Assembly: GCF_030915385.1 (NCBI RefSeq)
Contig: NZ_CP133268.1
Span: 2,097,430-2,161,429, forward strand
Direction of reading: 5' to 3'
Length of the DNA: 64,000 nucleotides
DNA from: Neobacillus sp. PS3-12
GTDB taxonomy: Bacteria > Bacillota > Bacilli > Bacillales > Cytobacillaceae
In this document: piece by piece, positions 11,887-62,277 of the stretch
Numbering within the stretch: position 1 is the first letter of the stretch
Layout: the number at the start of each line of letters is the position of its first letter
Program-made: the position numbers and the translations under genes
Notes under the pieces: generated by a model
Databases searched by the model: none
What the model saw: only the letters and a program-made list of their open reading frames with translations
Told to the model about the DNA's origin: nothing

Positions 11887-11887
11887 A

Positions 11888-11919: not shown

Positions 11920-11981
11920 TCATGTTATTCATGTCATAATCTCCTAATTAACATCGCAGCATGCCAAGGCACCGAAAACGG

Positions 11982-12284
11982 TCATTGTCTTCCATTTTTA
12001 AAGAATATCAAAGGCTTAATGTGATCTCTGCTATGTACTAAATTTTCTTTTATATATGTAATGGCGTCATTATTGGTGATCGAGGAACAGTTATTTACCG
12101 TTATCTCCACCCCCCTCCCTCCTCGTTTATTCGAGGATAATTTACAGCCAATCTTCTCTAAGTTCGTTCCAATATCACTTTGAGTATAGTTATTCACCAT
12201 TTTTGCATCCTGACTGACCGCATTCATTCCACAGCCCGCCAATAATCCGACGGCTGATAGGATAATTCCAAAAACCTTTTTCAT
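11982..12284 (-). CDS. hypothetical lipoprotein
   Basis: 'LLAGCG' lipobox; GGAG RBS 11 nt before ATG 12284. Confidence 0.55.
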   Translation of the reverse strand: MKKVFGIILSAVGLLAGCGMNAVSQDAKMVNNYTQSDIGTNLEKIGCKLSSNKRGGRGVEITVNNCSSITNNDAITYIKENLVHSRDHIKPLIFFKNGRQ

Positions 12285-12589
12285 TCTGCTCACATCTCCA
12301 GTTAGTATTTTGGTAAGACATTTTTACTATTTTTTTCTGAAGTTTATACTTTATTCACTGTGAGTGGAGAAACATTATATATGACATAAAGCTGGCTTAA
12401 TTCTTCCTGTTCTCTGAAAAAGTGGATGAGCAAGGCAAATAAAGTTTTTCTTGCTCTGAAATGGGTTTCATACATTATTCTAATTTTAAAGACAGAGAAT
12501 AATTTTGGTTGGCGTGACGCAAATGGCAGCGTAACAACCTTTTATTGAGTATTCCTTGGGGAGCGCTTCTTTTTTGCATTTTAAACGTA

Positions 12590-12632
12590 AAAAGCCCCGC
12601 AGGCGATGGGGGATTTAGCCTGCGGGGCTTTG
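12590..12632. terminator. bidirectional stem-loop terminator (aaagccccgcaggc ... gcctgcggggcttt)
   Basis: 14-bp GC-rich stem flanked by A/T runs. Confidence 0.65.
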
Positions 12633-12633
12633 A

Positions 12634-12750
12634 TTAATCAATATCCTGCATTTCACTTAACAATTCAGAAATTTGATAGTGAATTGCGATATAATCGACA
12701 TACTCGTATGGGTTTTCTGTTTCAACTTCAACATCTAGAATGGCTTCCAT
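12634..12750 (-). CDS. 38-aa acidic small protein (MEAILDVEVETENPYEYVDYIAIHYQISELLSEMQDID), coupled downstream of DoxX paralog 1
   Basis: AAGAGG RBS in the 33-nt gap after the DoxX stop; a near-identical ORF follows DoxX paralog 3. Confidence 0.5.
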   Translation of the reverse strand: MEAILDVEVETENPYEYVDYIAIHYQISELLSEMQDID

Positions 12751-12783
12751 AGCATTCTACCTCTTTTATAATGAATTTTTGCA

Positions 12784-13305
12784 TTACGCACTATGTTTAA
12801 CGGAATTGATAGGATCATTTCCTTTAGCGCCAAATTTATGAACAAATGGGATCACCCAGCGGTCTAAACCGATGCGGCCTGCATTGAAACCAGCAGCAAG
12901 AATGATTACACCAAGTAAAATATCTAATGGGTTGCTAGAAACTACTCCAGCAAACACATAAGAGAAGTTCATGACTAGTCCAAAAAATGCAGCAGCTGTT
13001 GTTAAGCATCCAAGGATTAAACCTACACCAACTAAAAACTCACCATAAGGAACAAGGACGTTAAAAAGGTGTGCATTTGGGATAGCAAAGTGTTTTAAGA
13101 AACTAACATATGTTGGATATTCAACTGCTTTTGTTGGACTTAGAACTGGATGCGCAGCAACTCCTGTTAAAAATCCAGTTACATCAAATTTACCGCCTGA
13201 TATTTTTTCAAAGCCCGCCAACATGAATTCATATCCAACATAAAGTCGAATGACGGTAAGAATGTAAGATGCAATTTTGTTTTCTCTTAAAAATTTGTTA
13301 AACAT
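12784..13305 (-). CDS. DoxX family membrane protein, paralog 1
   Basis: 'IRLYVGYEFMLAGFEKI' DoxX motif; 4 TM segments; AGGAG RBS before ATG 13305. Confidence 0.8.
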   Translation of the reverse strand: MFNKFLRENKIASYILTVIRLYVGYEFMLAGFEKISGGKFDVTGFLTGVAAHPVLSPTKAVEYPTYVSFLKHFAIPNAHLFNVLVPYGEFLVGVGLILGCLTTAAAFFGLVMNFSYVFAGVVSSNPLDILLGVIILAAGFNAGRIGLDRWVIPFVHKFGAKGNDPINSVKHSA

Positions 13306-13412
13306 ATAAAAGACTCCTTTCAAAAGTCAGTAAATATTATTAATGATTACACCGTTATTATAGAACTTTCGGTTGGCATTTTGTTCCGTTCCTAGGACTA
13401 TTCACATAGTAT

Positions 13413-13455
13413 TCAAAAAGAATTGAACAAATATTGACAATGATTCTCGATTAGA
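13413..13455. promoter_or_regulatory. conserved about 43-bp upstream element of the DoxX paralogs (TTCAAAAAGAATTGAACAAATATTGACAATGATTCTCGATTAG), copy 1
   Basis: same element at the same spacing (about 95-150 bp upstream of the start) at all three DoxX genes. Confidence 0.5.
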
Positions 13456-13649
13456 TAGATTAGATAGATTAGATAGGTCGACAGACGCTGGGAATTACTA
13501 GGGAAATTGACTCTTTTCATTATGATTAGTTTTGCTAAGCTTAGAGCCATGGAAGAAAATATAATTATGAAAAGTAAATGGAAGATCGTAGGATATAGTT
13601 TTTTGGGATTTATTATGTGTCATTTCTCAATGCTTTTTAAGTTAATAAA

Positions 13650-13694
13650 CATACAAAAGGTACATCACTCTCTATGTGATGTACCTTTTGTATG
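13650..13694 (-). terminator. perfect 19-bp-arm palindrome (catacaaaaggtacatcac tctctat gtgatgtaccttttgtatg); likely terminator of the small-protein pair
   Basis: inverted repeat read directly in the sequence. Confidence 0.5.
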
Positions 13695-13784
13695 CCATAT
13701 ATCCGTGAATTTTGGTATTATATCCTCACGTTTCCTCGATATCCGCAAGTTTCGGTATTATATCCGTATCTCGCCTAAAGCATT

Positions 13785-14033
13785 TCATAGAAAAAAATTC
13801 TTCGGATACATTAATTGATCCCAATGGCCAAGTTGATTGGACGATGGGTCGTTACCATCAGCTGCTAAAATATCGATTTTTTCAAGTAACATTCCCGTTA
13901 CTATTCTCTTTTGAGTTAGCAATCCTACAAATTTTTCAATATCTTTAGTGGTACCTAATGCAGTGACAGTTTCCAATGCCTCTGCTAAAGCTTGTTCCAA
14001 GCTTGTAAAGGCGTCACGTAATGAATCTGCCAT
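13785..14033 (-). CDS. small acidic alpha-helical protein, paralog A
   Basis: AGGTGAT RBS; similar to the adjacent paralog B. Confidence 0.5.
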   Translation of the reverse strand: MADSLRDAFTSLEQALAEALETVTALGTTKDIEKFVGLLTQKRIVTGMLLEKIDILAADGNDPSSNQLGHWDQLMYPKNFFL

Positions 14034-14077
14034 ATTCCTATCACCTTCTAATGATATGGATTCCAAGTAAGACTAGA

Positions 14078-14335
14078 CTATTTGGGTTGGGGATTGTTGG
14101 CCAATTCCGCTGCTTGAATAATGTCTTGAAGGATAATATCAATTGCGAGTTCTTTTCTAATGGATAATGCAACTAATTTAATTAAATTGTCCGTGAAGGT
14201 TTCCAATTGTTCGGCCTTGAAATTTCCTTTACTAAGGATTCTAGTTTGAACAGTTATTGCATCTGCTAATGCATTTTCTATGTGGGCAACGGAGGAAAGA
14301 ACTTCAAGAATTGTTTCTCGAGAAGATGGAGACAT
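14078..14335 (-). CDS. small acidic alpha-helical protein, paralog B
   Basis: GGTGAT RBS; 85 aa. Confidence 0.5.
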   Translation of the reverse strand: MSPSSRETILEVLSSVAHIENALADAITVQTRILSKGNFKAEQLETFTDNLIKLVALSIRKELAIDIILQDIIQAAELANNPQPK

Positions 14336-14644
14336 TCAATATCACCTTTATTTTAGACTTGTATTCTAATGTATGTACGCTCTTTACAAGTGGTGTATAT
14401 CCCCTTTTATACTCGAGGAACGTTTAAAAAGTTGTCGCAGCAACATCGACAAACTTCTTCCTATATATGTGTAAAAAAGATTGTATTCTAAAGGATAAAT
14501 AAAAATTCAATCAATCGATTGATTAAAATTGAAATAGTCGAATGGGGTCATAAGAATACCTTGTGAAACGGCGCAAAAGAACTTTTCCTTAAGCACGGGC
14601 AAAATAAAATACAAGTAGTTATTAGAGAATGGATGACGACCATG

Positions 14645-25392: not shown

Positions 25393-26979
25393 CTACGCTA
25401 CAAATTTATTAATTTCTTCCGCCTCATCCATGTATTCTGTTTTAATCCCGCTTTTCACTCCCCAATAATAGAAGCCAAGTGCCAGACAAGCGATGACCGC
25501 CATATCCCAGCCAAATGGAATGATATTTTTTCCGCCGAACTTCTCACTTCCAATATAAGAAATCAAAATCATACATCCTAAGTAAAGAAGCATCCAAACA
25601 CCTGAAGTAAATTGTTTTTTGAATCCAATCCATTTATTTTTCGCTTGATAATAAAAGTAAATCGGAAGTCCAATGGCCATGATGAACACGACTTCTCCGG
25701 TTAACGGCCAGCGCGCCCAGTATAAAGTCAAGGATGCAAAAACAAATCCCAATGGTGCAATAACGGAAGCACCTTTTAAGCGAAACGGCCGATTAAATTG
25801 AGCAGCAGTACGTCTTAATGTGGTTAACGCAACAGGTCCCATGATGTACGAAATAAGAGTTGCAACTGAAATGATTTCAGCCAGAACGCCCCATCCACGG
25901 AATAAAAATAAAAAGAGATAACATACGCCTAAGTTTAAAAACATCGCAGGACGAGGTACACCGTATAGTGGATGCAAAGTACCAAAGATTTTCGGCAAGT
26001 ACCCATTTTTTTGCATCCCATAAATCATCCGCGATGTTGTAGCGGTATAAGTAGACCCTGTACCAGAAGGTGATATAAATGCATCAGCATATAATACAAT
26101 GGATAACCAGTTAAGCCCAAGAGCCAAGGCCAAATCGGCAAAAGGGGAATTAAAATTCAGATGATTCCAGCCGTTCACAATCATCGACGGCTCAACAGCA
26201 CCGATAAACACAACTTGTAAAATAATATAGACAAAACCTGCGATTAAAATAGAGCCGATAACAGCAATCGGAATCGATTTATTCGGTGACTTCGCTTCCC
26301 CTGCCATGTTAACAGGACTTTGAAATCCGTTAAAGGCAAACACGATACCAGAAGTGGCGACTGCTGTTAACACACTTGCCCCGCCGTATGGCGCCATTCC
26401 TTGAGCACTTGTAAAGTTCCCGCTATGGAATCCAGCAAAAAACAACGCTCCCACCACGACTCCTGGAACAATTAATTTCAAAACAGTAATAAATGAATTC
26501 GCCTTCGCAAAAAGATTGACCGTCCAATAGTTGACGAAGAAATAGACTAATAGTAGTACAGCAGCGATGAACACTCCTTTGATCGTTAAGATATTGTTAT
26601 GAACGAGAGAATGAGTCCATACTGCCCATTTCCAAGGCCACGTACTCATATATTGTACCGAGGCAATGGCCTCCACCGTAATCGTCGACGCAATTGAGAT
26701 CCAGTTCGCCCACGCCGCTAAAAATCCAATAAAAGAGCCATGTGAATATTGAGGATACTTAACCATCCCTCCAGCTTCCGGAAACATAGCCCCAAGCTCT
26801 GCGTAAGATAAAGCAATGAATAAAATAACAACCATACCGATTATCCAAGAAAAAATAGCTGCTGGCCCAGCAATTTGAGCAGCCTTCCACGCTCCAAACA
26901 ACCAGCCTGATCCGATAATCGAACCAATACCAGTCATCGTTAAAGCAAATGTCCCCATTTTTCTTTGCAAATTACCCAT
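25393..26979 (-). CDS. APC superfamily amino acid/polyamine permease
   Basis: 12-TM pattern; 'GSIIGSGWLFG' motif; GGGAGAGGTG RBS. Confidence 0.8.
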   Translation of the reverse strand: MGNLQRKMGTFALTMTGIGSIIGSGWLFGAWKAAQIAGPAAIFSWIIGMVVILFIALSYAELGAMFPEAGGMVKYPQYSHGSFIGFLAAWANWISIASTITVEAIASVQYMSTWPWKWAVWTHSLVHNNILTIKGVFIAAVLLLVYFFVNYWTVNLFAKANSFITVLKLIVPGVVVGALFFAGFHSGNFTSAQGMAPYGGASVLTAVATSGIVFAFNGFQSPVNMAGEAKSPNKSIPIAVIGSILIAGFVYIILQVVFIGAVEPSMIVNGWNHLNFNSPFADLALALGLNWLSIVLYADAFISPSGTGSTYTATTSRMIYGMQKNGYLPKIFGTLHPLYGVPRPAMFLNLGVCYLFLFLFRGWGVLAEIISVATLISYIMGPVALTTLRRTAAQFNRPFRLKGASVIAPLGFVFASLTLYWARWPLTGEVVFIMAIGLPIYFYYQAKNKWIGFKKQFTSGVWMLLYLGCMILISYIGSEKFGGKNIIPFGWDMAVIACLALGFYYWGVKSGIKTEYMDEAEEINKFVA

Positions 26980-27464
26980 CCCTGCCTGCACCTCTCCCTA
27001 GAAAAATAAAAAACACTCGATCTATATATAAATCAAGTGTTTGCCCAGGCGTACGACGAATAGTCTATATGCTCCCTCATGGTAATCCATGTGCGCCAGT
27101 TACATATAGAAGTATAGTTTTTTTATTAGTATAAAGGATTTTTACACTATTCACAATACATATATTCGTTATAATAAAAACTTTATATTTCGGATTTTGG
27201 CGCAAACTTCCTAATAAAAATTCATAAATTAGGTAACTTAAGTTCAAAAAACAAACATTCCCATACATTTCTACGTATTGTAAAAACAGAATAAGTCCCA
27301 TTTAAAATTATATTGACCAACCTTTAGGATTTATAATTAAATACGAAAAATTATGTCAGAAAAATAAGAATATTTTATATTGTTATTCAATGCTAGTTTG
27401 TTACATAATTTAGGTTGTACAAGAGAATTTGTACATAACTATTCCAAAAGAAAGAAGGGGTTAA

Positions 27465-51686: not shown

Positions 51687-52718
51687 TCACATGCGTGTGA
51701 TCCTGGTGAAGTCATTTCTTTTTGGAAAAATTAAGGTGAAGGTTGTTCCTTCTCCTAGTGTAGAGGAAACATCGATCTTGATGAGCAGTGGCTTTGCAGC
51801 TTTTTTTGCTAAAAATAGCCCCATGCCTGTTGCTGAATGGTCCTGGTGGTTCGCTGTAGAGGTAAAGCCTTTGTCAAAAATACGCGGCAAATCCTTGGGG
51901 TCGATGCCTCTGCCAAAATCCTCAATGGTCAGTTTTGTTTGATCACTTTGAGTGTCACTTTTGATCAGGATATCGGATACTTCGCTGTATTTGACCGCAT
52001 TTGTCAATAGCTGCCTGATGATAAACGCAAGCCATTTGCCGTCACTTAACACCGAATCTCCCTCTAAATCTACATCAAAACCAATGTTTTTCTGGATGCA
52101 CCAGGATTGCAAATCCTTGATTTCCTTGAAGACAACGGCTTTTAAATCCACTTTTTCAATAAAAAGGTCATTCTCCATAAACGGCAGGCGCTTTTGATGA
52201 AGCTGCTGGTCAAGAAGATGGTGAATTCGCAGCCACTCCACCGTTAATTTATTTTTCAGCGTCACATCGTTCATGCTTTCAATCATTAAGTGCATCGATG
52301 TCAATGGCGTTTTTACTTCATGGATCCAAGTGAGCAGATCATCTTTTTCCTCTTCCAGGGCAATCTGGCTTTTCGATGTATCCTGTTTCAGCCTTATTGT
52401 CTGGTTGGTGATGATGGTTTCGATTAATTTTCCAAAGGGTCTTTCAGCGTGGGATAGGCTTGTTAAATCCAGGGTATTGTCCCATTCTGACAGGCTCCGA
52501 TAGAATTTCGTTTCCTTATGATAACGGATGAATAGGAAAAAGATGAAAATAATCATTGATAGAAAAACGATGTAAACGATCGGACCCAAAGGGATGGCGT
52601 CATCAAGATAGGCGACAAATATCAGCAGGCCCTGCAGGCCGATAAAAAGCAGAATCCAGCTGCGCCTTTCGATTAAAAAGTTCTTGATCATATTTTCTTT
52701 GCGAACATGTTCAATCAT
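51687..52718 (-). CDS. bceS: BceS-type intramembrane-sensing histidine kinase
   Basis: 2 TM segments with a very short loop; 'IHEVKTPLTS' H-box; HATPase_c. Confidence 0.8.
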   Translation of the reverse strand: MIEHVRKENMIKNFLIERRSWILLFIGLQGLLIFVAYLDDAIPLGPIVYIVFLSMIIFIFFLFIRYHKETKFYRSLSEWDNTLDLTSLSHAERPFGKLIETIITNQTIRLKQDTSKSQIALEEEKDDLLTWIHEVKTPLTSMHLMIESMNDVTLKNKLTVEWLRIHHLLDQQLHQKRLPFMENDLFIEKVDLKAVVFKEIKDLQSWCIQKNIGFDVDLEGDSVLSDGKWLAFIIRQLLTNAVKYSEVSDILIKSDTQSDQTKLTIEDFGRGIDPKDLPRIFDKGFTSTANHQDHSATGMGLFLAKKAAKPLLIKIDVSSTLGEGTTFTLIFPKRNDFTRITRM

Positions 52719-53416
52719 AAAGAGTTTCCTTCTTCAACAGCGATGTAACCTTGGCCGACCTTTGTTTCGATAAAGCGGCCCAATCCAATTTCATCGAGCT
52801 TCTTCCTAAGCCGATTGACATTGACGGTTAAGGTATTATCGCTGACAAAACGTTCGTCGTCCCAGAGACTTTTGATCAGCTCTTCACGGCTGACAATCTT
52901 ATTTTTCTGTTCGATCAATTTTTTTAAGATAAATATTTCATTTTTGGTCAATTCAATGGATCCAAGGTCATTCGTTACCGTATTTTGCTGATAATCGACC
53001 GTCGCACTGCACCATGTTTTCAGCAGAGGCTGCTCAGAATTGTAATTATAGACGCGTCGAAGAATCGCCTGGATTTTGGCAATCAGTACATCGGTATGGA
53101 ACGGCTTTTGAACAAAATCATCTGCCCCAAGCTGCATAGCCATCACCATATCAGTGGGGTGGTCGCGGGATGAAAGAAACAGAATCGGCACATTGGAATG
53201 GGCGCGGATCATCCGACACCAATGAAACCCATCGAACTTCGGCAGCTGGATATCAATGATCACCAAATCCGGATTGATTTCGGCAAACTCCTGCAAAACC
53301 CTGCTAAAGTCCGTAATCCCAAACACCTCATACGACCAGCCCTCCAGCCGCTCCTTTAACTCACTAAACAGCGTAACATCATCCTCAACCAGCAAAAACT
53401 TAAACAACCCGTTCAC
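52715..53416 (-). CDS. bceR: BceR-type OmpR-family response regulator
   Basis: REC plus winged-helix domains; overlaps the bceS start (ATGA). Confidence 0.85.
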   Translation of the reverse strand: MNGLFKFLLVEDDVTLFSELKERLEGWSYEVFGITDFSRVLQEFAEINPDLVIIDIQLPKFDGFHWCRMIRAHSNVPILFLSSRDHPTDMVMAMQLGADDFVQKPFHTDVLIAKIQAILRRVYNYNSEQPLLKTWCSATVDYQQNTVTNDLGSIELTKNEIFILKKLIEQKNKIVSREELIKSLWDDERFVSDNTLTVNVNRLRKKLDEIGLGRFIETKVGQGYIAVEEGNSL

Positions 53417-53767: not shown

Positions 53768-54410
53768 TCAACAGTTTTCCAACTTAATTTCCGCCAGCGA
53801 ATTTACCACCTGATCTGCGATGGAAAGATCTAACCTGGTATGTTGATGCCTGATGCCGATTCCATACATGTTGGCCCTTTTGGCTGCTACCATTCCATTA
53901 TAGGAATCTTCCACCACCAAACAATGTTCAGGCGGAAGATTGAGTTTTTTAGCTGCAGTCAGAAAAATCTCCGGAATTCGGCTTCCCTGAATCAATTTCA
54001 TCTCCTGCAATGGTCACTATAAAATAACTTTTTAGGCCGCATTGTTCCAGGACCTCATTAACTCTTAATCTTTCAGATGATGACGCTAATGCACACGGGA
54101 CCCCCAATTCCTGAAGTTTACCGAGGAACGGAATGACCTCCGAAAACAGAATACTTTTAAAGTTCCATTCATAATTGTGAAAAATACCATTTTGAAATTG
54201 AATCAACTCATCAATGCTTTGCTCCAAATGGTAATGCTCTTTTAAAATCTGCCATTTGGTCCTCTTTGTGACCCCTACGTATTGGAGTTGTACATCCTCC
54301 TCAACCGTAAGCCCCAACTGCCTGAATATTTTTTTATTCAGCATCTTGTATATCGGTTCGCTGTCAATAATGACTCCGTCCATATCGAAAATGACCCCAA
54401 ATTTTTGCAC
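53768..54410 (-). pseudogene. HAD-superfamily hydrolase, beta-phosphoglucomutase-like; 1-nt indel about 53970-53980
   Basis: 'VIFDMDGVIIDS' motif I; frames join as ...[35 protein letters not shown]. Confidence 0.7.
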
Positions 54411-54485
54411 CTGCTACTTTACCTCCTTACAATAAAAAGAGACTACTGCAAACATGTCATTGCAGCAGTCCCTATTTTCAGTCGA

Positions 54486-55201
54486 TTACTCCCAACTCAT
54501 TTCCAATAACTGCTTTATTTTAGAAATTTCTGTCTTGCCTGTTTGTTTGTCAATCAATGAAGTATATAAGTGAGGAATCACCGTTTCCACTCCATTGTCG
54601 AAACAAGTTTGAACAATATTATGAACATTCTCCACTGTGATTCCACCGGTTGGTTCAAAGTACTTTAATCCGGCATTGGCAGCAGCTTTAGCCATAGCAG
54701 CAACTTCGTCAAGTTTTTGTTCTCCTTTGATCGGATAAAATTTCACCGATTGAACGCCGATCTCAGCGAGCATGGCAGCAGCCATTTTGCAGGATACTTT
54801 TTCTTTATAGTCAGTACTTACAGGGCCTGTAGAGATGAATACTTGCCCCGGGTTCTGGAAGGTTCAATAACTCCGTTAATGATTGGGCTTTCCCCGAGCT
54901 CTTTTAAACGGCCCAACGTTAAACCTGCCGCAGTAAAGACCTGATTGATGTGGGCCGGCTTGGTTTGCGCCGCAACATTAGCCACTTTCTCCCACATAGC
55001 AGGATCGGCTGCACCAAGTCCCACTGATACACGAACACCATTCTCCTGATAGGTTTTGACTTGTTGAACAGCAGATTCCTCAGTTGGGAAGTTTTTCACC
55101 ATCACGCCGATTAATACCCGGTCGCCACCTACTTCCGTAACTTCTTTGGCGTTTTCTACATCTTTTGCCAGTACGTTAAAAATCACATTGCGTTTCATAA
55201 T
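54486..55201 (-). pseudogene. KDGP/KDPG-aldolase family protein (DgaF-like), frameshift at 54846-54852 (likely 1-nt deletion)
   Basis: frames join as ...INGVIEPSRTPGQVFISTGPVSTDYKEKVSCKMAAAMLAEIGVQSVKFYP. Confidence 0.7.
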
Positions 55202-55205
55202 ATAT

Positions 55206-56312
55206 TTACTTCTCCTTTGTAATGATTTTGATGATCTCATCGGAAATAATATCCTCTTGTCCATTTAAGAGTGGACGCGGATCCACTGATAAAATGCCGA
55301 TATTTGCATAGTGATCGCGCAGGAAGATGGCCAGATTCCCGGATTTAAGCATATGGAGCAGCTCCATAGCTGAATAACCGATCTTCATCTTATCCACCTG
55401 GATTTGGGCACGATAGATTTCTCTTCCCGCTTCATCTTGTTTAATGGAGCAAGTTAACCCGTCATATTCATTCAATCGATTGCATAGTTTTGTCATCCGT
55501 TCCAATTGAAGCTCAGCTGTGCTTGTTTTGGAGGAATACAGCTTTAATGCGGTGATGAGGCCGGCCATTCCTTCCTTGCCGATCTTCATTGGGCGTCCTA
55601 CACCTTTGTACTGCTTTCTGCAGGCTTCCATCAGTTCTTTTTTGCCGCAAATCAGCCCTGAGGTTGGTCCTTCCAGTGCTTTACCACCGCTGTAGATGAC
55701 GATATCTGCACCCATTTTGATATATTTTTGGAAGTCCTCTTCTGCAGCCGCATCGATAATGAGCGGCAGATTGTGGCGATGGGCAACATCCAGCATCGCT
55801 TCGATCGATTGCATCCCTTTTTGCACGGCATGATGCGATTTAATATAGAAAATCGCAGCCGTTTTTTCATTAACAGCCTCTTCGATATGATCTTTTTGTA
55901 CCTTATTGGCCTGTCCGACTTCGACGACTTTACCGCCGCCAATTCGAATCATTTGGGCAATGCTTGCACCAAAATTTACAACATGCCCTTTTTGAACAAT
56001 AATTTCATTTTGGAGGCCTTCCGTATCCGGAATGCGTTCAATCAGGGAAAGATTTTTCCCTGCAATGACCGCGGCGGTTGCAATGGCAATGCCGGCAGAT
56101 GCGCCGCAGGTCGGGCAGCCATCCTCGGCTCTTGTTATTTCTGCAATCACTTGTCCTGCGTATTCATAAAGTTCTTCAATATCGACATAATCCTGTGATG
56201 CGTCTTTCAATGCCTGCCCAATCTCATCCCTCACGGCAGATGCACCAAGAGCAGTCATTTTTCCGCTTGCATTGATAATTTCTCTTAATCCTTGCTGTTT
56301 AAAAAATCCCAT
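55206..56312 (-). CDS. DgaE-like, SelA-like PLP-dependent ammonia-lyase family protein
   Basis: 368 aa; 'YSGGKALEGPTSG' PLP-lysine motif as in SelA/DgaE. Confidence 0.7.
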   Translation of the reverse strand: MGFFKQQGLREIINASGKMTALGASAVRDEIGQALKDASQDYVDIEELYEYAGQVIAEITRAEDGCPTCGASAGIAIATAAVIAGKNLSLIERIPDTEGLQNEIIVQKGHVVNFGASIAQMIRIGGGKVVEVGQANKVQKDHIEEAVNEKTAAIFYIKSHHAVQKGMQSIEAMLDVAHRHNLPLIIDAAAEEDFQKYIKMGADIVIYSGGKALEGPTSGLICGKKELMEACRKQYKGVGRPMKIGKEGMAGLITALKLYSSKTSTAELQLERMTKLCNRLNEYDGLTCSIKQDEAGREIYRAQIQVDKMKIGYSAMELLHMLKSGNLAIFLRDHYANIGILSVDPRPLLNGQEDIISDEIIKIITKEK

Positions 56313-56324
56313 TTTATATTAACC

Positions 56325-57020
56325 TCACTTTACTATTGGTGGAATTGGAATCGGGAAGAATGCTCCAAAAATCATGGCTCCTAAAATAGCTCCCCCAGCA
56401 ATCGGCTTTTTCCAGGCATAGAAGATCGCTGCACCGATCACGGAACCAACGCCGACCGGTATAGATGCTGTACAAGCAGAAAGAATGATTAGTGGTCCAA
56501 GGAAACGGCCGGATGTATTTCCTGCACCCATCATAATATCGGCTCCGAAAGTGGAATCGGATTGTCCGACGGTAAATTTACGAATTCCAATAATGATATA
56601 ACCAGTGATCAGACCTAATAACGCTCCTGTGATTAAAGCAAGAGGGAAAGATTGAATCGGGGCCGTAATCCCAGCTCCGAGCATCAATGCCGGAATACCA
56701 ATCCCAATACCTGTCTGGATGGAACCACCGATATCGAGGATCCCGACAAGAGATCCTTCCAAAATACGGGCAAATAAGAAGCTAGCGCCAAATGCTGCAG
56801 CTGCACCATACCCGCCGCCTTTCATTCCTGCCGCAAGCATTGCCACAATGGCAACGTCGTTAAAAGCACCTACATGGAATGTGTAATACATATGGGTCCC
56901 AGCAAAAATACCTGCTGAAATAAAGGCCACAAAAATCGGAAAGGCCCAGTCTCCATACCAAAAACTTTTTAAATTAAGTTGATTTTGATCCGGACTTTCT
57001 ACAAATTGTCTATCTATCAT
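56325..57020 (-). CDS. glycine-rich polytopic membrane protein (DUF4310/DUF4311 group)
   Basis: 231 aa; about 6 TM segments; Gly/Ala-rich. Confidence 0.6.
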   Translation of the reverse strand: MIDRQFVESPDQNQLNLKSFWYGDWAFPIFVAFISAGIFAGTHMYYTFHVGAFNDVAIVAMLAAGMKGGGYGAAAAFGASFLFARILEGSLVGILDIGGSIQTGIGIGIPALMLGAGITAPIQSFPLALITGALLGLITGYIIIGIRKFTVGQSDSTFGADIMMGAGNTSGRFLGPLIILSACTASIPVGVGSVIGAAIFYAWKKPIAGGAILGAMIFGAFFPIPIPPIVK

Positions 57021-57808
57021 TACTTTTTCACCTCTAGACCCATCATTTTATGAAGTTCAACTAACCATCCTGGAATTCCCATATGGAAACCTTTAACCAG
57101 GCTGACATCAAAGCCACGGAAGAAACCGCTCAAGACAAACAGCAGAATGACAGATGTAAATAGAATCTTGGTTACCTTAGACCATCCGGCCTCATCGACA
57201 CCTTTACCAATTAAAATACCAAGTACAACCCCAGGTACGGCATTTCCCATGATGAGATGAGCAGCACCGCCGAAAATGGTTCCCCAAAGACCGGACCGTT
57301 TTCCTGCATCAAGTGCAGCCAGCCAGAAAATAACCGGCATGACAGGGTTAATTAACAAGTTGGCAGCAGGAACAAGAACTTGAATGGCGACATCCTGCAA
57401 AGATTTTGGAATCGCTGCAGCAGTAGAGTTCAGGAAAGCAACCACAATTGCGCCAATAATAGCACCGGCGATTGCCATCTTTTTCGGATCGTGCAGCGTG
57501 TCTTCAGGACGTTTGCCTTTTCTTAAAAGAACAGCAGCCGACCAGTTTGGAATAATCCGATGATCCACATCCTGTGTAAATGCACCGGCACCAACCACTG
57601 ATGCCCAGGCGTTAAAGAAGAAACCAAGACCGAAAGAAAAGTGGGAAGCAGCGTCACCTGCGCAGGCGTTCAATTCCCCAAGTGTACGGAATGCGCCCAT
57701 CCCTTGAACGGTTGGAGCGTGGAACATTCTCGCGGCACCTGCGCCTACGGCAAAGCCGACCAAAGCCCCAATTATGATGGATTCAAATAAAATTTCTACA
57801 AAATGCAT
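57020..57808 (-). CDS. glycine-rich polytopic membrane protein (DUF4310/DUF4311 group)
   Basis: 262 aa; about 7 TM segments; start overlaps the upstream stop. Confidence 0.6.
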   Translation of the reverse strand: MHFVEILFESIIIGALVGFAVGAGAARMFHAPTVQGMGAFRTLGELNACAGDAASHFSFGLGFFFNAWASVVGAGAFTQDVDHRIIPNWSAAVLLRKGKRPEDTLHDPKKMAIAGAIIGAIVVAFLNSTAAAIPKSLQDVAIQVLVPAANLLINPVMPVIFWLAALDAGKRSGLWGTIFGGAAHLIMGNAVPGVVLGILIGKGVDEAGWSKVTKILFTSVILLFVLSGFFRGFDVSLVKGFHMGIPGWLVELHKMMGLEVKK

Positions 57809-57823
57809 AAGGCCACCACCTAA

Positions 57824-58168
57824 CTATTTAGTCTGATTGCCCAGAATCATCGTTTTGAACGTTTCGGGCTGCTCAGTTTTTTCAAATTGAATTTGATCTG
57901 TTTCCAGCAGAAAAACGTTAACATCAATTTCCATGACAACCTTGTATGTGGTTCTTTTCCTTGGGAAAAAGAAAAATAGAAAGCGCTCGGTGTACGTTGT
58001 TTCTTTTGCTTCGACAACTCGGATATCCTCGGGTTCAATCCGGAGAATCAAGCCTTTATAGGAGGACATGACCTTCTGTTGAATCTTGCCCAATGCCTTG
58101 TTAATCGCTTGTTCCTTTGAATTGCCAATCCCGTCAATCTCAACGGTTGTTTGAAAAGTTTTCTTCAT
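57824..58168 (-). CDS. small soluble protein of the cassette (DUF4312-like)
   Basis: 114 aa; conserved position in the cassette. Confidence 0.5.
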   Translation of the reverse strand: MKKTFQTTVEIDGIGNSKEQAINKALGKIQQKVMSSYKGLILRIEPEDIRVVEAKETTYTERFLFFFFPRKRTTYKVVMEIDVNVFLLETDQIQFEKTEQPETFKTMILGNQTK

Positions 58169-58175
58169 ATTCGCC

Positions 58176-58535
58176 TCACCCTTTTATTTTTGCGTATGCT
58201 TCGGTGATCCTCTTTCCTAACTCCTCTTTATCCATAAATCCAAATCCAAGTGCCCGCTTTCCTGCGCGAAGAGCCGTCAGGCCTTCCTCAATGGAGCGCA
58301 TGCCATACTGGCAAGGATAACCGTATTTGGATTGAGCGGTAATAGCTCCAGCACCGCCGCTTCCGCAGAAGGAAATTCCGATATCGGCATTTTCCGTTTT
58401 CATAACATCTCCAAGTTTCATATCGGCGCCCATGCCTTTGATCAGAATAGCTTTCCCGCCGGCTGCTTCTACTCCTTTCGCTACATTCTGGCCTTTGCCC
58501 AAACGGTCGCCAATCACTACCACTACTTGACTCAT
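58176..58535 (-). CDS. glycine-rich SFCGS-motif protein
   Basis: 119 aa with 'ISFCGSGGAGAITAQ'. Confidence 0.55.
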   Translation of the reverse strand: MSQVVVVIGDRLGKGQNVAKGVEAAGGKAILIKGMGADMKLGDVMKTENADIGISFCGSGGAGAITAQSKYGYPCQYGMRSIEEGLTALRAGKRALGFGFMDKEELGKRITEAYAKIKG

Positions 58536-58554
58536 TTAAATTCCTCCTTGTTTA

Positions 58555-58905
58555 TTAACACATCTTTGCTGACTCAAAATGAATGGATAACAGGTATTTC
58601 TCATCATCCTGTAAGCCCTTAAGCCTGCCGCAAATTTTGGCTGCCAATTCGATGGACTCTTCTGATACCTCGGAAAACAGAACTTTATCAATCGGTGCCA
58701 ACTGTTCATTGTTAATGGAACGGTAGACCATCGCGGAAAGGTGCGATGTAAGGGATAATAACTGGGAGTCGCTCAAGTGGATCTCTTGTTCCTCCAAAAG
58801 CTCCCGAGTGAATTGGATCAGTTCCTTACATGTTTCCGCGTCCCGCTCCTTTCTAGTAATCTTTCTATATCTGTGGTATTCAATTGTTTTACACAACCCT
58901 TCCAT
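58555..58905 (-). CDS. stand-alone PRD-domain protein
   Basis: 116 aa; 'LSLTSHLSAMVYR' PRD-like helix. Confidence 0.55.
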   Translation of the reverse strand: MEGLCKTIEYHRYRKITRKERDAETCKELIQFTRELLEEQEIHLSDSQLLSLTSHLSAMVYRSINNEQLAPIDKVLFSEVSEESIELAAKICGRLKGLQDDEKYLLSIHFESAKMC

Positions 58906-60004
58906 CCTTAATCGTCATTTTTGGCTGAAGTACTCGATCTGCCAGAATCGAAACACCTTCTGAATCAGTCAGCGTTGTTGGTTCCTCCACGATTCGGAAT
59001 ATGGTCAGATCGGCACGGGTTCCGGATTTCAGCGTACCTTGTTCCGTAAGCCCGATTCTCTGTGCAGCCCTGATGGTGACAGCCTGGACCACCTCTTCAA
59101 GTGAAAATCCTAGTTGCATGAATTTGGACATGGTCAGCATTAGGCTGCCAACTGGTTTTTGATAATTCCCCAAATAAATATCGGTACTAATAGAAAACGG
59201 TGTCGAGTATCGTTCTTTGAATTTTCGAATGGTGTCAAAGCTGAAACTGGACGTTCCGTGGCCGACATCAAAGAGTACTCCTCGTGCCAATGCATCTTCT
59301 GCTTCAGGAATTAAGGTGCGATCCTCGTTTAAAATGCCATGCTTTTTCCCGTGAAAGGCATGGGTGACAATATCCCCTTTTCGAAGCAGCGGAAACACTT
59401 CCTGTAAATAAGGAGGCGGGTTTCCGATATGGACCATAATCGGTACATCAATGGCATTTGCGAGCATCCTGGCATGTTTAAGCGGTGCAATCCCCTGCTC
59501 TTTCACAACCGATGAACTCATTCGCGCCTTGAACCCAACCAGGTTGGGTTCACGAGCAAAAATGTCCGCTGCCTCTTCCACTGTCATCAGGTTGGAGGGA
59601 TCCGCCAGTTCTGATTTCCAGGTGCTTAAGCCCACATGAGAAATATTCAAGAAGCACAGAACTTCCGTTTTGCTCTTGCTAACAACGTTTTCCTTAAAAA
59701 CACCATAGTTGCTATATCCCGCACTGCCGGCATCGACAATGGTGGTGACGCCCTGTTCGACTCCAACGCGGTCTGCTTCTATCCCGAGGTATGTTACATC
59801 TTTAAAAACATGGACATGAAGATCGATAAACCCCGGAGCAACATAGCACCCGTAAGCGTCAATACGCTGGATATTTTCTCCTTTCGCAAGCACTTCCTCA
59901 ATCGCAGCAAGTTTGCCATCGATGATTCCAATGTCTTGCTTTTCAATCCTGCCTTTCTCAGGATCAATCACAAGACCATTTTCTACTATTGCATAGTCAG
60001 ACAT
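58889..60004 (-). CDS. metal-dependent amidohydrolase (dihydroorotase/deacetylase-like)
   Basis: 'DLHVHV' metal-binding motif; 371 aa. Confidence 0.8.
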   Translation of the reverse strand: MSDYAIVENGLVIDPEKGRIEKQDIGIIDGKLAAIEEVLAKGENIQRIDAYGCYVAPGFIDLHVHVFKDVTYLGIEADRVGVEQGVTTIVDAGSAGYSNYGVFKENVVSKSKTEVLCFLNISHVGLSTWKSELADPSNLMTVEEAADIFAREPNLVGFKARMSSSVVKEQGIAPLKHARMLANAIDVPIMVHIGNPPPYLQEVFPLLRKGDIVTHAFHGKKHGILNEDRTLIPEAEDALARGVLFDVGHGTSSFSFDTIRKFKERYSTPFSISTDIYLGNYQKPVGSLMLTMSKFMQLGFSLEEVVQAVTIRAAQRIGLTEQGTLKSGTRADLTIFRIVEEPTTLTDSEGVSILADRVLQPKMTIKDGRVV

Positions 60005-60018
60005 CTTCCCACTTCCCT

Positions 60019-61857
60019 TTACTTAAAATATTGTAATAAGGCGATAAGCTCTGATTCATGAACAGGCAATTCCTTTTCGTCAAGAATCTTTTTGATTTCC
60101 CTCAAGTGTTGCTTATTTTTCTCCGAGATTGAATGGCCGTTAAACATGAAGTCGTCATATTGCTTATCAAAGTAGTATCGGTGAACCATTAAGAATATGT
60201 GAAGTTGCAGGGCCTGCAGCCTTGCTTCCATAATGTCTTCCCGAAACTCCGAGAGGATTTCCTGTTGCACTTCAAATCCTTTTAAAATAATCTCCTGGCT
60301 GATATCCTCACTATCTTCATCCAACGGGTTCTGCTCCTCAAAAAGTGAATTGGACTGAGACCGTGGATGTTTTTTCATCAACCTGTCTACCGTTTCACGA
60401 ATCTTTTGAATATCATGTTTGGACGGAATGGCATCCACCACGATGACCTGTATTTCCGCTTTTATCGGAAAAACACTGATAATCAGGTCGACGTTCTCTT
60501 TTTTGCATAATTCTTCTACCTTCATCATGGAGCAATGGCCCACCAGGTCGATTTCACGGATTTCTTTTTCCACCCGGCTTTTAATCAGCCTTGCAACCCC
60601 TCTGCCTGTGGAGCAGACATATAAGGCCCGAACTTTTGCCCATTTGGTAAACGTATTTTCAAACGATGCCAAAAAATGCAGGGTAATAAAGGATACAAAA
60701 TATTCCTGATTAGCCATTACGGATGCTCCCAAGAATTTCTCGCATGCTTTCAAAACATGTTCAAAAAGTTTCGGGTAATGATGCTTGATCTCATCGGCAA
60801 ACGGATTATCTTCCACCATATTAAACATGCCTCTTTGCAGACGGAGTGACAGATGGGCAAACAAGTTGCTGAAAAGTCTCGGGTCTCTCCGATATTCAAT
60901 GCCTTCCAGTTCTCCAACATAGCCGATAATACCGTTTGTAACCTGAATTAAATCAATTCCGTTTTTCTCCGTCTTAATTTCCCCAGAGATATAAAGGAAC
61001 TCGTTTTCCAATAGCGGCAATTCCAATTCGGAAAAGACACCCTCCATAAAGGAAAGAACAAACAGCGAAATATTGTCTGTATAATGTTTCTTATTCAAAA
61101 CCCGGTAACCTTTTAATGCCTCTCCCAAAATTAACCGCTTAATCGAAACCGTAACCCGGATTAAAAGTGCGATCAGATCTGATTGCTGAAACAGATCGGA
61201 AACCTCAGTCCGATATAATTGACTTAAATGTTTGACGGCAACGGTATAGAAGGGAAGCAAGGAATGTTCGATCAAAAGTCCCTGTCCGTCCACCTGCTCA
61301 TGATTGGTAATCATGGTCATCATTTGATAGATATCGTAATTCGTCAGGCCTGAATAAATCAGGTGTTCAAGCAATAATCGGAGATGAAGTTCCTCCCCGA
61401 CAAGCCTGTACCCTCTGCGCCTTGCCCTCTCGAGCTTGATTTTCCAGGGAGCAACAAACTCATCCACCAGGTTCATATCATTTAAAATGGTATTCCGGCT
61501 CACCAGGAGACTGTCGGCGAATTCCGCCGCCGTCAGATATTCATCTTTCAGCAACAGCATCAACAAAATTTTCCTCAGACGAAAATTCGGATCGGGAATC
61601 TGATTTTGACGCTCGTTTCCCAAAATTTCATTTAAGGCCTGACTCCGTGTCTCTTCATCGCCATTTACCCAAATCCCTTTGCCTGGTTGTGAGTCAACCT
61701 CCATTTGATGGGCTTTGAACCAATCTCTTACTTGGCTGAGATCATTTTTAATCGTTCTGGTACTAATATTAAAATCCTCTGACAACTCTTTAGTTGTAAT
61801 AGGCACCCTTGATTCCAAAAGTTTGGTTGCAATCTTAAGTTCTCTTTCAGTTAGCAT
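60019..61857 (-). CDS. PRD-containing transcriptional activator (HTH-PRD-PRD-EIIB-EIIA; MtlR/LicR/BglG family)
   Basis: 612 aa; N-terminal HTH; two PRDs; 'LYVCSTGRGVARL' EIIB-like segment. Confidence 0.8.
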   Translation of the reverse strand: MLTERELKIATKLLESRVPITTKELSEDFNISTRTIKNDLSQVRDWFKAHQMEVDSQPGKGIWVNGDEETRSQALNEILGNERQNQIPDPNFRLRKILLMLLLKDEYLTAAEFADSLLVSRNTILNDMNLVDEFVAPWKIKLERARRRGYRLVGEELHLRLLLEHLIYSGLTNYDIYQMMTMITNHEQVDGQGLLIEHSLLPFYTVAVKHLSQLYRTEVSDLFQQSDLIALLIRVTVSIKRLILGEALKGYRVLNKKHYTDNISLFVLSFMEGVFSELELPLLENEFLYISGEIKTEKNGIDLIQVTNGIIGYVGELEGIEYRRDPRLFSNLFAHLSLRLQRGMFNMVEDNPFADEIKHHYPKLFEHVLKACEKFLGASVMANQEYFVSFITLHFLASFENTFTKWAKVRALYVCSTGRGVARLIKSRVEKEIREIDLVGHCSMMKVEELCKKENVDLIISVFPIKAEIQVIVVDAIPSKHDIQKIRETVDRLMKKHPRSQSNSLFEEQNPLDEDSEDISQEIILKGFEVQQEILSEFREDIMEARLQALQLHIFLMVHRYYFDKQYDDFMFNGHSISEKNKQHLREIKKILDEKELPVHESELIALLQYFK

Positions 61858-62084
61858 AAACTCACCGCTCTACATGTAGTTGGAGTTGAAATCGTTTACA
61901 TATTTATTGTAGTAATAAATGAATATCCTTTAAAGACCAAATACCTTCCCTCGACTTAGGGAAGTATTTTATTGTTTAACTTCAAATATTTTAAATTTTC
62001 ACCCACTGTCTTTTTTGTGGAGCACACCGCCTCCACTCAATCGTTAAATGATTATTACATAACCGACAACTTTAAACGCTTTTC

Positions 62085-62275: not shown

Positions 62276-62277
62276 TT

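Follow-up and report, generated by a model that had tools for sequence, protein, structure and literature searches.

How does a substrate reach DgaE- and DgaF-like enzymes in an operon that encodes no classical PTS permease? This question is raised by nine minus-strand genes in the window, the whole 64,000-nucleotide stretch of Neobacillus sp. PS3-12 DNA that was analysed. An earlier note had described these genes as co-directional and tightly packed, with a membrane pair and two small soluble proteins in the place of the permease genes; its observations were partly confirmed and its interpretation was partly supported. Profile searches recovered all nine ORFs with family matches far beyond chance and intergenic gaps of -17 to +19 nt (Table 1), and found no classical PTS permease in the operon, the four proteins in question matching only DUF or "hypothetical equivalog" models.

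Table 1. Features of the operon and its flanks (window coordinates)
Feature	Coordinates	Strand	Basis
Promoter-like site TTTAAA-17-TACAAT, 5' of regulator gene	61906..61934	-	Consensus scan
PRD activator, 612 aa: HTH_11, Mga-type HTH, PRD1-like, PRD2, EIIB(Gat/Lac)-like, C-terminal PRD-like	60019..61857	-	Pfam, NCBIfam, segment scans, hhalign
Amidohydrolase/deacetylase-family metallohydrolase, EF_0837/cog3964 type, 371 aa	58889..60004	-	NF006689, 428 bits (cutoff 371); Pfam Amidohydro_1/3, EF_0837-like_N
Stand-alone PRD protein, EF_0829 family	58555..58905; true start probably ~58883	-	TIGR03582, 117.5 bits (cutoff 69.35); L001 comparison
SFCGS protein, 119 aa, soluble, RpiB/LacAB-like (beta-alpha)5 fold	58176..58535	-	PF14272 at 2.8e-60, TIGR03577
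DUF4312 protein, 114 aa, soluble	57824..58168	-	PF14189/TIGR03578
DUF4311 polytopic membrane protein, 262 aa, Gly/Ala-rich	57020..57808	-	PF14188/TIGR03580
DUF4310 polytopic membrane protein, 231 aa; start overlaps DUF4311 stop by 1 nt	56325..57020	-	PF14187/TIGR03579
DgaE-family PLP-dependent ammonia-lyase, 368 aa	55206..56312	-	TIGR01437, 502.8 bits (cutoff 385.3)
KDGP-aldolase family gene, EF_0839/DgaF-like (ORFs 54818-55264 and 54486-54785)	54486..55198	-	Halves match PF07071 positions 1-117 and 140-217
Intrinsic-terminator-like hairpin, 14-bp stem then T-run, closes operon	54438..54473	-	Sequence read
HAD-IA sugar-phosphatase-like gene, optional accessory, 3' of terminator	53768..54410	-	Intact L001 copy matches HAD_2, resembles HxpB and beta-PGM

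A known cassette and its conservation

The gene set is already on record as the NCBIfam/TIGRFAM "EF_0829-EF_0839 / AHA_3910-AHA_3917" cassette, for whose neighbourhood precisely the models TIGR03577-TIGR03583 were made, joined by TIGR01437 and the Pfam families SFCGS, DUF4310, DUF4311 and DUF4312. Each gene of the window operon matches the corresponding model without essential difference; the models are "hypothetical equivalogs" of a cassette without assigned function, and a literature search found no paper characterising it. The cassette is present in at least 581 species, and its strong conservation beyond this genome was evident from neighbourhood comparison of 80 genome and 80 further metagenome loci. 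The order SFCGS-DUF4312-DUF4311-DUF4310 is fixed in these ~160 loci, and the companions in the genome loci are a PRD regulator (77 of 80), the amidohydrolase (76), the DgaE-like enzyme (75), the aldolase (71) and the stand-alone PRD protein (72, plus four divergent); the metagenome loci carry the same set, including 27 of the 80 in which DUF4311 is only ~45-55% identical to the retrieval query. Fixed order and constant companions indicate inheritance of the cassette as one unit, and the gene order in the window is its commonest layout (43 of 80 genome loci).

The terminator-like hairpin stands directly 3' of the aldolase gene, placing beyond it the HAD phosphatase gene that had been thought possibly to follow. 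This gene adjoins the cassette in 11 of the 80 genome loci and, in one divergent lineage from metagenomes, overlaps the aldolase gene. Upstream, promoter-like sites are no more frequent in the region than in shuffled sequence, so that the site before the regulator gene is weak evidence.

Enzymes and regulators

The PLP enzyme, previously described as SelA-like and DgaE-like with a GGK lysine (SGGK, K211), was borne out as such by TIGR01437. It is 44% identical to Salmonella DGL (PDB 7lc0; E 2.4e-95) and scores 416.5 against the DgaE equivalog NF047797, below the cutoff of 600. In Salmonella DGL, three arginines hold the substrate phosphate (PMC9529869); these arginines, the His-His pair and the PLP lysine are all kept in the window enzyme (R301, R332, R346, H160/H161 and K211) and recur in 75-76 of the 76 cassette homologues. 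Because the lyase keeps the phosphate-binding arginines, the pathway intermediate is expected to carry a terminal phosphate. The aldolase of metagenome contig L001, which is 99.15% identical to the window region and has every gene intact, is 237 aa long and scores 307 bits against TIGR03581 (cutoff 222.4); with the DgaF equivalog it reaches 279 bits, just below the cutoff of 300. The amidohydrolase, likewise recognised earlier, passes NF006689 and falls below the narrower TIGR03583 (348 versus 432); its PDB relatives are 8wzy, 2ogj and 2ics, and the only substrate reportedly known for the family is a surrogate one (Ornelas et al. 2013).

The regulator had been read as HTH-PRD-PRD-EIIB-EIIA. 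Its length and its HTH, PRD and EIIB-like parts stood, residues ~404-498 giving only a weak PTS_IIB match (E 0.0053), but an EIIA domain was undetectable in it by Pfam/NCBIfam searches and segment scans. Residues 505-612 align instead to the stand-alone PRD family (local hhalign E 6e-4), and the C-terminus thus looks like a third PRD. Conservation of H335, H394, C415, H553 and R560 is complete or almost complete (63-64 of 64 Bacillota homologues). All cassette regulators examined by Pfam are PRD activators except one of GntR type. The cassette regulators share with MtlR/LicR/ManR-class activators and Mga/AtxA-type regulators an N-terminal HTH joined by one of Mga type, PRDs whose histidines are conserved, and an invariant Cys in an EIIB(Gat/Lac)-like domain; they differ from the MtlR/LicR/ManR class in that the Bacillota proteins have, in place of the C-terminal EIIA(Mtl), a PRD-like domain in which an H-x6-R signature is invariant, whereas the enterobacterial ones keep a true EIIA domain (Pfam). 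This arrangement fits PRD modules replacing EIIA in this system.

The stand-alone protein is a PRD family member, as had been proposed, but its reported 116-aa form did not hold: the first ~20 residues are out of frame owing to an indel at 58844, and it is the N-terminus of the 109-aa L001 version that matches homologues. Both canonical phosphorylatable PRD histidines are invariant among the aligned cassette members.

A candidate uptake and phosphorylation module

The two membrane proteins, DUF4311 and DUF4310, are hydrophobic and polytopic with many invariant polar residues. DUF4311 is ~70% identical between Bacillota and Enterobacterales; its AlphaFold model, all-helical, is of only moderate confidence (pLDDT 75.7). 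Searches by structure and by sequence turned up no relative outside its own family, solved transporters included. No relative of DUF4310 was found in the PDB, and homology between the two was undetectable. The two soluble proteins proved to be members of the SFCGS and DUF4312 families. SFCGS, a point missed by the earlier note, is not fold-less but an RpiB/LacAB-fold protein, whose loop C57-G-S-G-G-A-G within the SFCGSGGAGA motif is invariant (134/134 distinct sequences, 100%) and places its Cys at the RpiB/LacAB catalytic position. It differs from these isomerases in being ~30 residues shorter, in lacking conservation of the ring-opening His99/Asn100 and the C-terminal phosphate-binding arginines of RpiB, in not matching PF02502 in the Pfam search, and in being invariably encoded beside two membrane proteins. 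For DUF4312, family alignments show no His or Cys to be conserved, and a PDB relative was not found.

An HPr gene (PF00381) lies inside or adjoins the operon in Paenibacillus, Brevibacillus and a divergent lineage, where it is the last operon gene, and an Enzyme I gene follows it in five Paenibacillus loci; HPr is operon-encoded in only ~10% of loci. These genes make phosphoryl-relay control without a classical EIIC, as suggested earlier, plausible, the regulator's supposed EIIA being the part that fell away. No EIIA-type gene was found in Bacillota operons, and no kinase or classical EII gene recurs in the ~160 neighbourhoods; therefore the cassette itself must supply the phosphate. Enterococcal cassettes have canonical EII genes inside or beside them, namely a Lac-type EIIC with a MupG-like gene within, or a full fructose-type EIIBCA following (PMC11934601).

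We tentatively favour, with somewhat less than even confidence, a reading in which the operon catabolises a D-glucosaminate-type 2-amino-2-deoxy-aldonic acid, the substrate being, by analogy only, N-acyl-glucosaminate-like, and in which the four ever-linked proteins form a new type of PTS-fed module that replaces the classical Enzyme II in uptake and phosphorylation, with DUF4311 and DUF4310 as its membrane part and SFCGS and DUF4312 as its cytoplasmic part. Enzyme I and HPr would relay phosphoryl groups from PEP, perhaps by way of the histidines of the stand-alone PRD protein, to Cys57 of SFCGS and thence to the substrate during its crossing of the membrane pair. Against such a module count the missing EIIA gene in Bacillota, the composition of DUF4312 and the rarity of operon-encoded HPr; the general PTS state likewise affects PRD activators, which hence are no proof of a dedicated relay, and the enterococcal EIIC or EIIBCA could be the real permease there.

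These same gaps, with DUF4312 lacking a phosphorylatable residue and ~90% of operons lacking HPr, would also suit a scheme in which DUF4311/DUF4310 represents a new family of ion-coupled permease and SFCGS, given its fold and the position of its Cys, an RpiB-like isomerase or epimerase acting with DUF4312 on a cytoplasmic sugar(-phosphate) intermediate, the kinase being encoded elsewhere and the PRD proteins reporting only the general PTS state (catabolite control). We consider this rather unlikely: a simple deacylase-lyase-aldolase route requires no isomerase, SFCGS departs from RpiB as listed above, the kinase is unlinked in ~160 loci despite the phosphate-binding arginines retained by the lyase, the soluble pair is never separated from the membrane pair, and operon-encoded HPr and Enzyme I in several lineages are hard to account for. 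The enterococcal permease genes, and a degree of conservation in DUF4311 and among its polar residues that is extreme for a simple permease, could instead mean that the four proteins form a membrane-anchored complex for signalling or processing, a "transceptor" or EII-like sensor governing the PRD activator. The substrate would then enter through a conventional permease encoded elsewhere or, as in enterococci, alongside. This reading is improbable, as no further transporter gene is present in most operons (those of Bacillaceae, Paenibacillaceae and Enterobacterales), two polytopic and two soluble proteins are costly for sensing, and the cassette is transferred horizontally as a self-sufficient unit.

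We give slightly less credence still to a decaying operon, in which the cassette would be a cluster of pseudogenes and the frameshifts in the aldolase, PRD and HAD genes would be genuine. The frameshifts do stand in the window sequence, but comparison with L001 traces each to one base gained or lost in a homopolymer run: GGGG->GGG at 54852 (aldolase), a 1-nt insertion at 53976 (HAD) and a 1-nt deletion at 58844 (PRD N-terminus), together with like indels at 62605 and 63193 in the housekeeping genes sdhB and sdhA (3' end). Other disabling changes are absent, and long ORFs are few throughout the window, as expected of systematic sequencing error. The five indels look like assembly errors rather than biology, and the aldolase frameshift reported earlier is very probably an artefact in a gene whose family assignment stood.

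Relation to known systems

The uncharacterised E. coli yhfZ-yhfY-yhfX-yhfW-php-yhfU-yhfT-yhfS cluster has a parallel architecture without a kinase: YhfY is a stand-alone PRD protein, YhfT a polytopic membrane protein, Php an amidohydrolase-superfamily enzyme, and PLP enzymes are also encoded. YhfU (DUF2620), a soluble protein of 117 aa, has an invariant Cys in a C-x-T-G-A-G-A-A loop in register with that of SFCGS, but the sequences are not significantly similar (hhalign: YhfU/SFCGS, E 0.27; YhfT/DUF4311, E 0.005 over 46 columns). The cluster has one 434-aa membrane protein rather than two, no DUF4312 and different downstream enzymes, and YhfY retains only the first PRD histidine, whereas the cassette protein retains both.

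The Salmonella system comprises the mannose-family PTS DgaABCD, DGL and DgaF (PMC9529869). It has in common with the window operon the ammonia-lyase, with the same catalytic and phosphate-binding residues, and the KDGP-aldolase family, with pyruvate and glyceraldehyde-3-phosphate as predicted products; the window operon lacks the mannose-type EIIA/B/C/D and adds the amidohydrolase, the PRD protein and the four DUF proteins. The Salmonella dga operon is not known to encode an amidohydrolase or deacetylase. That the operon is an ordinary Dga operon of unchanged substrate and chemistry with the permease alone swapped is very improbable, for all the lyase's likeness to DGL and the aldolase's near miss of the DgaF cutoff: both enzymes stay below their equivalog cutoffs (416 versus 600; 279 versus 300), the regulator is a PRD and not a sigma-54 activator, and the conserved amidohydrolase implies an N-substituted or otherwise masked precursor.

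The same chemical logic, deacetylase to deaminase to a 2-keto-3-deoxy-gluconate-type product, operates in the non-phosphorylative OngB/OngC pathway for GlcNAc1A (oxidised chitin) of marine Gammaproteobacteria (PMC9537276, PMC12017989). There, according to one summary (PMC11653859), phosphorylation comes only after deamination, via KDG kinase, whereas the cassette has a lyase made to take a phosphorylated substrate and no linked kinase; a link of the cassette to GlcNAc1A is speculation. With the four proteins as a PTS-fed module, the substrate would most likely be imported N-acylated, the amidohydrolase would remove the acyl group, the lyase would convert the 6-phospho-amino-aldonate to 2-keto-3-deoxy-6-phospho-aldonate and ammonia, and the aldolase would cleave this to the products named above, while the phosphorylation state of that relay would govern expression by way of the PRD activator.

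The operon, its conservation and the quality of the record

Nine co-directional genes run on the minus strand from 61857 to 54486 with gaps of -17 to +19 nt, and the tight packing claimed for them was borne out by the ORF listing and by the Pfam and NCBIfam assignments (see table). Searches with the DUF4310, DUF4311 and DUF4312 models and their TIGRFAM counterparts, proposed in the earlier note as a check, passed the cutoffs of TIGR03577, TIGR03578, TIGR03579 and TIGR03580. The amidohydrolase scores 348.4 bits with TIGR03583 (EF_0837 type; cutoff 432.15) and exceeds the cutoff of the sister model NF006689. No Rfam element, such as an antiterminator RNA target, was found within the operon, a promoter scan was uninformative (site counts equaled the shuffled expectation), and megablast returned no plasmid match to the operon.

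Features of the operon and an RNA element elsewhere in the window
Feature	Coordinates	Strand	Assignment
Regulator, 612 aa		minus	HTH_11, Mga HTH and PRD (Pfam, NCBIfam)
Amidohydrolase/deacetylase-family metallohydrolase		minus	NF006689, 428 bits (cutoff 371); Pfam EF_0837-like_N
Stand-alone PRD protein		minus	TIGR03582, 117.5 bits (cutoff 69.35)
SFCGS		minus	PF14272; TIGR03577, 203.5 bits (cutoff 141.1)
DUF4312		minus	TIGR03578, 121.5 bits (cutoff 89.65)
DUF4311		minus	TIGR03580, 472.5 bits (cutoff 301.1)
DUF4310		minus	TIGR03579, 361.9 bits (cutoff 215.45)
DgaE-family PLP lyase (SelA-related)		minus	TIGR01437, 502.8 bits (cutoff 385.3)
KDGP aldolase		minus	two ORFs in the window, each half below the TIGR03581 cutoff
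Strong terminator-like hairpin	54473-54438	minus	directly 3' of the aldolase gene; HAD gene beyond the hairpin
ZMP/ZTP riboswitch, RF01750	27036-27113	minus	57.7 bits; upstream of a 532-aa ORF (25393-26991)

When one genome per species was scanned, at least 581 species proved to carry a relative of DUF4311. The order SFCGS-DUF4312-DUF4311-DUF4310 is constant in 80 of 80 genome loci, where these genes are accompanied by the regulator in 77, the amidohydrolase in 76, the PRD protein in 72 (with a divergent form in another 4), the lyase in 75, the aldolase in 71 and a HAD gene in 11; the layout of the window occurs in 43 of these loci, and an Enterococcus/Enterobacterales layout, in which DUF4310 precedes the amidohydrolase, in 15. 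With the DUF4311 clusters that diverge most as seed, a metagenome scan added 80 loci, and in 27 of them DUF4311 is only about 45-55 % identical to the seed, all 27 harboring the same enzyme set. The gene neighborhood is therefore conserved outside this genome (80 genome and 80 metagenome loci), where the earlier note would have taken a lack of conservation as refutation, and nowhere among these loci was the four-protein set seen with different enzymes.

The cassette is present, among other taxa, in Enterococcus, Listeria, Paenibacillus larvae, Providencia, Morganella and Xenorhabdus. Its DUF4311 protein retains about 70 % identity from Bacillota to Enterobacterales (Providencia, Morganella, Xenorhabdus, Arsenophonus, Budvicia and Klebsiella; the loci for this comparison are L048, L052, L057, L059, L060, L064, L067, L070-L075, L080 and L082), and the E. 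faecium cassette is part of the composite transposon TnEFM-UMCG-1 (PMC11934601); together, the identity across phyla and the transposon point to horizontal spread and strong constraint. One locus, L031 (DASQNU010000240.1), comes from a metagenome-assembled genome labelled 'Candidatus Bathyarchaeia archaeon'; its cassette layout and match scores are Brevibacillus-like, its DUF4311 is 72 % identical to that of the window, and it is probably a mis-binned bacterial contig.

The best NCBIfam matches are the 'hypothetical equivalog' models EF_0829/0830/0831/0832/0833/0839, made for this very neighborhood, and the window locus clearly belongs to the EF_0829-EF_0839/AHA_3910-3917 cassette of NCBIfam/TIGRFAM. 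The observation is real and well conserved, and the gene set is already catalogued as a 'known unknown': full-text literature searches revealed no functional study of SFCGS, DUF4312, DUF4311 or DUF4310, only incidental mentions. Tn-seq has given fitness hints for EF0838 and EF0839 (PMC7701990), and an E. faecalis urine R-IVET screen yielded an insert with a putative ef_0839/ef_2975 promoter.

A JGI metagenome contig (L001) that is 99.15 % identical to the window over 16.9 kb carries intact copies of the aldolase (237 aa), HAD (213 aa) and SdhB genes, and its aldolase scores 307.1 bits with TIGR03581 (EF_0839; cutoff 222.4). Relative to this contig, the window has single-base indels in homopolymer runs at 53976 (HAD), 54852 (aldolase), 58844 (N-terminus of the PRD gene), 62605 (sdhB) and 63193 (sdhA). 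Because the indels are of this kind, the aldolase frameshift reported in the earlier note is, on sequence comparison, most likely an assembly artefact. In the 116-aa PRD ORF of the window, the ~20 N-terminal residues are read in the wrong frame, and it is the N-terminus encoded in L001 that fits the homologues. ORFs of 200 aa or more number only 25 in positions 1-51000 of the window; the homopolymer indels and this scarcity of ORFs suggest systematic long-read-type assembly error throughout the record. Of the 109 mismatches to L001, about 70 cluster at 52331-53281, a stretch that also has small indels at 52695-52706 and 53022-53031. This patch, which covers the 5' portion of a histidine-kinase gene (51687-52718) plus the 3' portion of a response-regulator gene (52715-53416), both belonging to a Bce-like two-component/ABC-FtsX module, looks recombined or hypervariable. 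Just 3' of the sdhB stop codon, at 62277, lies a 13-nt indel (CCCCTGTTCCCTT in L001, missing from the window).

Catabolic enzymes, membrane pair and small soluble proteins

In the DgaE ammonia-lyase of Salmonella (DGL), the substrate phosphate is held by Arg301, Arg332 and Arg346, and His162/His163 are used (PMC9529869). The window lyase carries the equivalents R301, R332, R346, H160/H161 and the PLP lysine K211, all of which are kept in 75-76 of 76 cassette homologues. Given this retention of phosphate-binding and catalytic residues, the pathway intermediate is predicted to be a terminally phosphorylated 2-amino-aldonate. No kinase gene recurs in any cassette neighborhood. The window locus is related to the Salmonella Dga PTS pathway without belonging to it: it misses the equivalog cutoffs (416.5 bits for the window lyase against 600 for the DgaE model NF047797, and 279.3 bits for the intact L001 aldolase against 300 for the DgaF model NF047796) and has no mannose-family EIIA, EIIB, EIIC or EIID in the operon. 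Since lyase and aldolase fall below these cutoffs and a deacetylase-family amidohydrolase is a near-constant companion, the natural substrate is probably related to D-glucosaminate, as an epimer or an N-substituted form; our guess is N-acetyl-D-glucosaminate.

The proteins of the window operon match no PTS permease family (Pfam, NCBIfam), in agreement with the absence of a classical permease claimed from the sequence. DUF4311 and DUF4310 are hydrophobic, Gly/Ala-rich, polytopic and exceptionally conserved, and the residues of DUF4311 that are invariant even in divergent clusters include R41, E45, H56, Q79, D80, R84 and N189. A DUF4311 profile search of 1.84 billion representative proteins returned 123 hits, all within its own family and with no fusion or tie to another family among them. 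That the membrane pair might turn out to be ordinary EIIC/EIID proteins, an outcome the earlier note had named as fatal to its proposal, did not come to pass: profile searches, Pfam included, match only the DUF4310 and DUF4311 models, and PDB sequences gave no match; certain PTS families (e.g. Gut) have, to our knowledge, no solved structure. The structure model behind this assessment of the pair is that of DUF4311 alone (pLDDT 75.7). A duplicated half-transporter pair was rejected, homology between DUF4311 and DUF4310 being undetectable (hhalign E 0.073).

The AlphaFold model of SFCGS (40 homologues; pLDDT 94.2) has a (beta-alpha)5 fold, conforming to the alpha/beta fold of the RpiB/LacAB isomerases, and C57 pairs with Cys66, the catalytic cysteine of E. 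coli RpiB, in an alignment of weak statistics (hhalign E 0.0018, probability 15 %) whose placement agrees with the fold. The C57-G-S-G-G-A-G loop shows no variation among all 134 distinct sequences. SFCGS thus shares the fold and the catalytic-Cys loop with RpiB/LacAB but gives no match to the family model PF02502 at E <= 0.01 (Pfam), has the non-conserved R90/A91 opposite RpiB His99/Asn100 (hhalign), and stops short of the C-terminal helix bearing Arg133/Arg137, all four RpiB residues having roles in that enzyme and the two arginines binding phosphate. DUF4312 is soluble and far less conserved (40 % mean identity), and was rejected as an EIIA-like carrier for want of a conserved His or Cys. 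Profile matches of SFCGS and DUF4312 to PDB sequences were spurious only (nitrogenase; RecA repeat).

Links to the phosphotransferase system

The HTH-PRD-PRD-EIIB-EIIA reading of the regulator survives in part: HTH_11, Mga and one PRD are clear, the EIIB-like domain gives a weak hit (E 0.0053), and no EIIA is present. The window regulator therefore does not match in full the MtlR/LicR layout (HTH, Mga-HTH, PRD, PRD, EIIB(Gat), EIIA(Mtl)), since EIIA is missing and the C-terminus is PRD-like. Pfam and segment scans found no EIIA domain in any protein of the window operon, PTS_EIIA_2 occurring only in enterobacterial cassette regulators. Eight regulators were seen by Pfam, seven of them PRD activators and one, from Companilactobacillus, of the GntR type; a genuine PTS_EIIA_2 ends both Enterobacterales regulators (2/2), and the Bacillota regulators are without EIIA (5/5). 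The C-terminal 110 residues of the Bacillota regulators can be aligned to the stand-alone PRD family (E 6e-4), scoring much as the bona fide PRD2 of these same regulators does, and an H553-x6-R560 signature is invariant in this PRD-like region. All 64 Bacillota regulators have PRD2 His335 and the EIIB-like Cys415, and 63 of the 64 have PRD2 His394. Both canonical histidines of the stand-alone PRD protein are kept in the aligned cassette members, and this protein, with its two invariant histidines, is a candidate substitute for EIIA.

As genomic context for a dependence on HPr and Enzyme I, about 17 of 160 loci have an HPr gene inside or adjoining the operon, and 5 have one for EI. The HPr gene (PF00381) directly follows the aldolase gene in Brevibacillus-type and divergent-lineage operons, precedes the regulator gene in Paenibacillus dendritiformis-type loci, and lies together with the Enzyme I gene upstream of the regulator gene in five Paenibacillus species. 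In the divergent lineage, the HPr paralogue is the last operon gene (L087, 13312-13569; L090/L091, 13241-13513; L117, 13271-13540; L137, 13448-13711) and retains the His15 motif GLHARPA with no serine at the regulatory Ser46 position, as would be expected of a carrier dedicated to phosphotransfer. In enterococcal and Pseudolactococcus cassettes, genes for a Lac/Cel-type EIIC and a MupG-like 6-phospho-glycosidase separate DUF4310 from the amidohydrolase or, alternatively, the aldolase is followed by a fructose-type EIIB-IIC-IIA gene and by a second regulator, of the BglG type; these variant loci are L062, L068 and L081 (about 11600-14400) and L123 (14703-16643).

A possible uptake and phosphorylation module

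Because the lyase substrate is phosphorylated, no kinase is linked, the soluble and membrane pairs are inseparable, and PRD, HPr and EI genes recur, the simplest reading is that the four proteins constitute a new type of module for uptake and phosphorylation, fed by the PTS. We put this forward tentatively, at a little below even confidence. Cys57 of SFCGS would be the last phosphoryl carrier, and the PRD module may occupy the position of EIIA.

Possible too, albeit doubtful, is the more specific proposal that SFCGS, DUF4312, DUF4311 and DUF4310 represent an unrecognized PTS Enzyme II superfamily, with the RpiB-fold, invariant-Cys protein as EIIB. The stand-alone PRD protein would then be a His phosphocarrier between HPr and the SFCGS cysteine, the PRD-like domain of the regulator would take the place of EIIA in Bacillota, likewise as a phosphocarrier, and the translocator would be a heterodimer of two membrane proteins of new fold. 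E. coli YhfY/YhfU/YhfT would be a second, distantly analogous case. The architecture of the yhfZYXW-php-yhfUTS cluster is parallel, combining a PRD protein and a membrane protein with a 117-aa protein that carries a Cys loop, with PLP enzymes and with a member of the amidohydrolase superfamily. Homology of SFCGS to YhfU and of DUF4311/DUF4310 to YhfT was not significant, and the likeness is kept as an architectural analogy only.

The main rival reading, which we regard as unlikely, makes SFCGS an isomerase and treats the membrane pair as a secondary permease, with phosphorylation supplied from elsewhere; it takes at face value the RpiB fold of a protein that lacks His99/Asn100 and the C-terminal arginines. 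A sensor or accessory role of the four proteins, which would suit the canonical EII genes in the enterococcal versions, is improbable.

The mechanism of the four-protein module is possibly new. These hypotheses are made testable by the Cys protein of RpiB fold, by a lyase with phosphate-binding residues but no linked kinase, by the HPr and EI genes of the operons and by the replacement of EIIA by PRD. Concrete targets are C57 in SFCGS, H48/H102 in the PRD protein, and HPr as a partner. N-acetyl-glucosaminate from oxidised chitin or host glycans is one candidate substrate. If the module is a PTS-fed group translocator, it would constitute a new Enzyme II architecture in a system studied for 60 years, PRD domains would gain a phosphocarrier role outside transcription control, and the RpiB fold would gain a non-isomerase function. 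Even as a new permease and isomerase, the cassette would define an unassigned route of amino-sugar-acid catabolism in gut, insect-associated and pathogenic bacteria.
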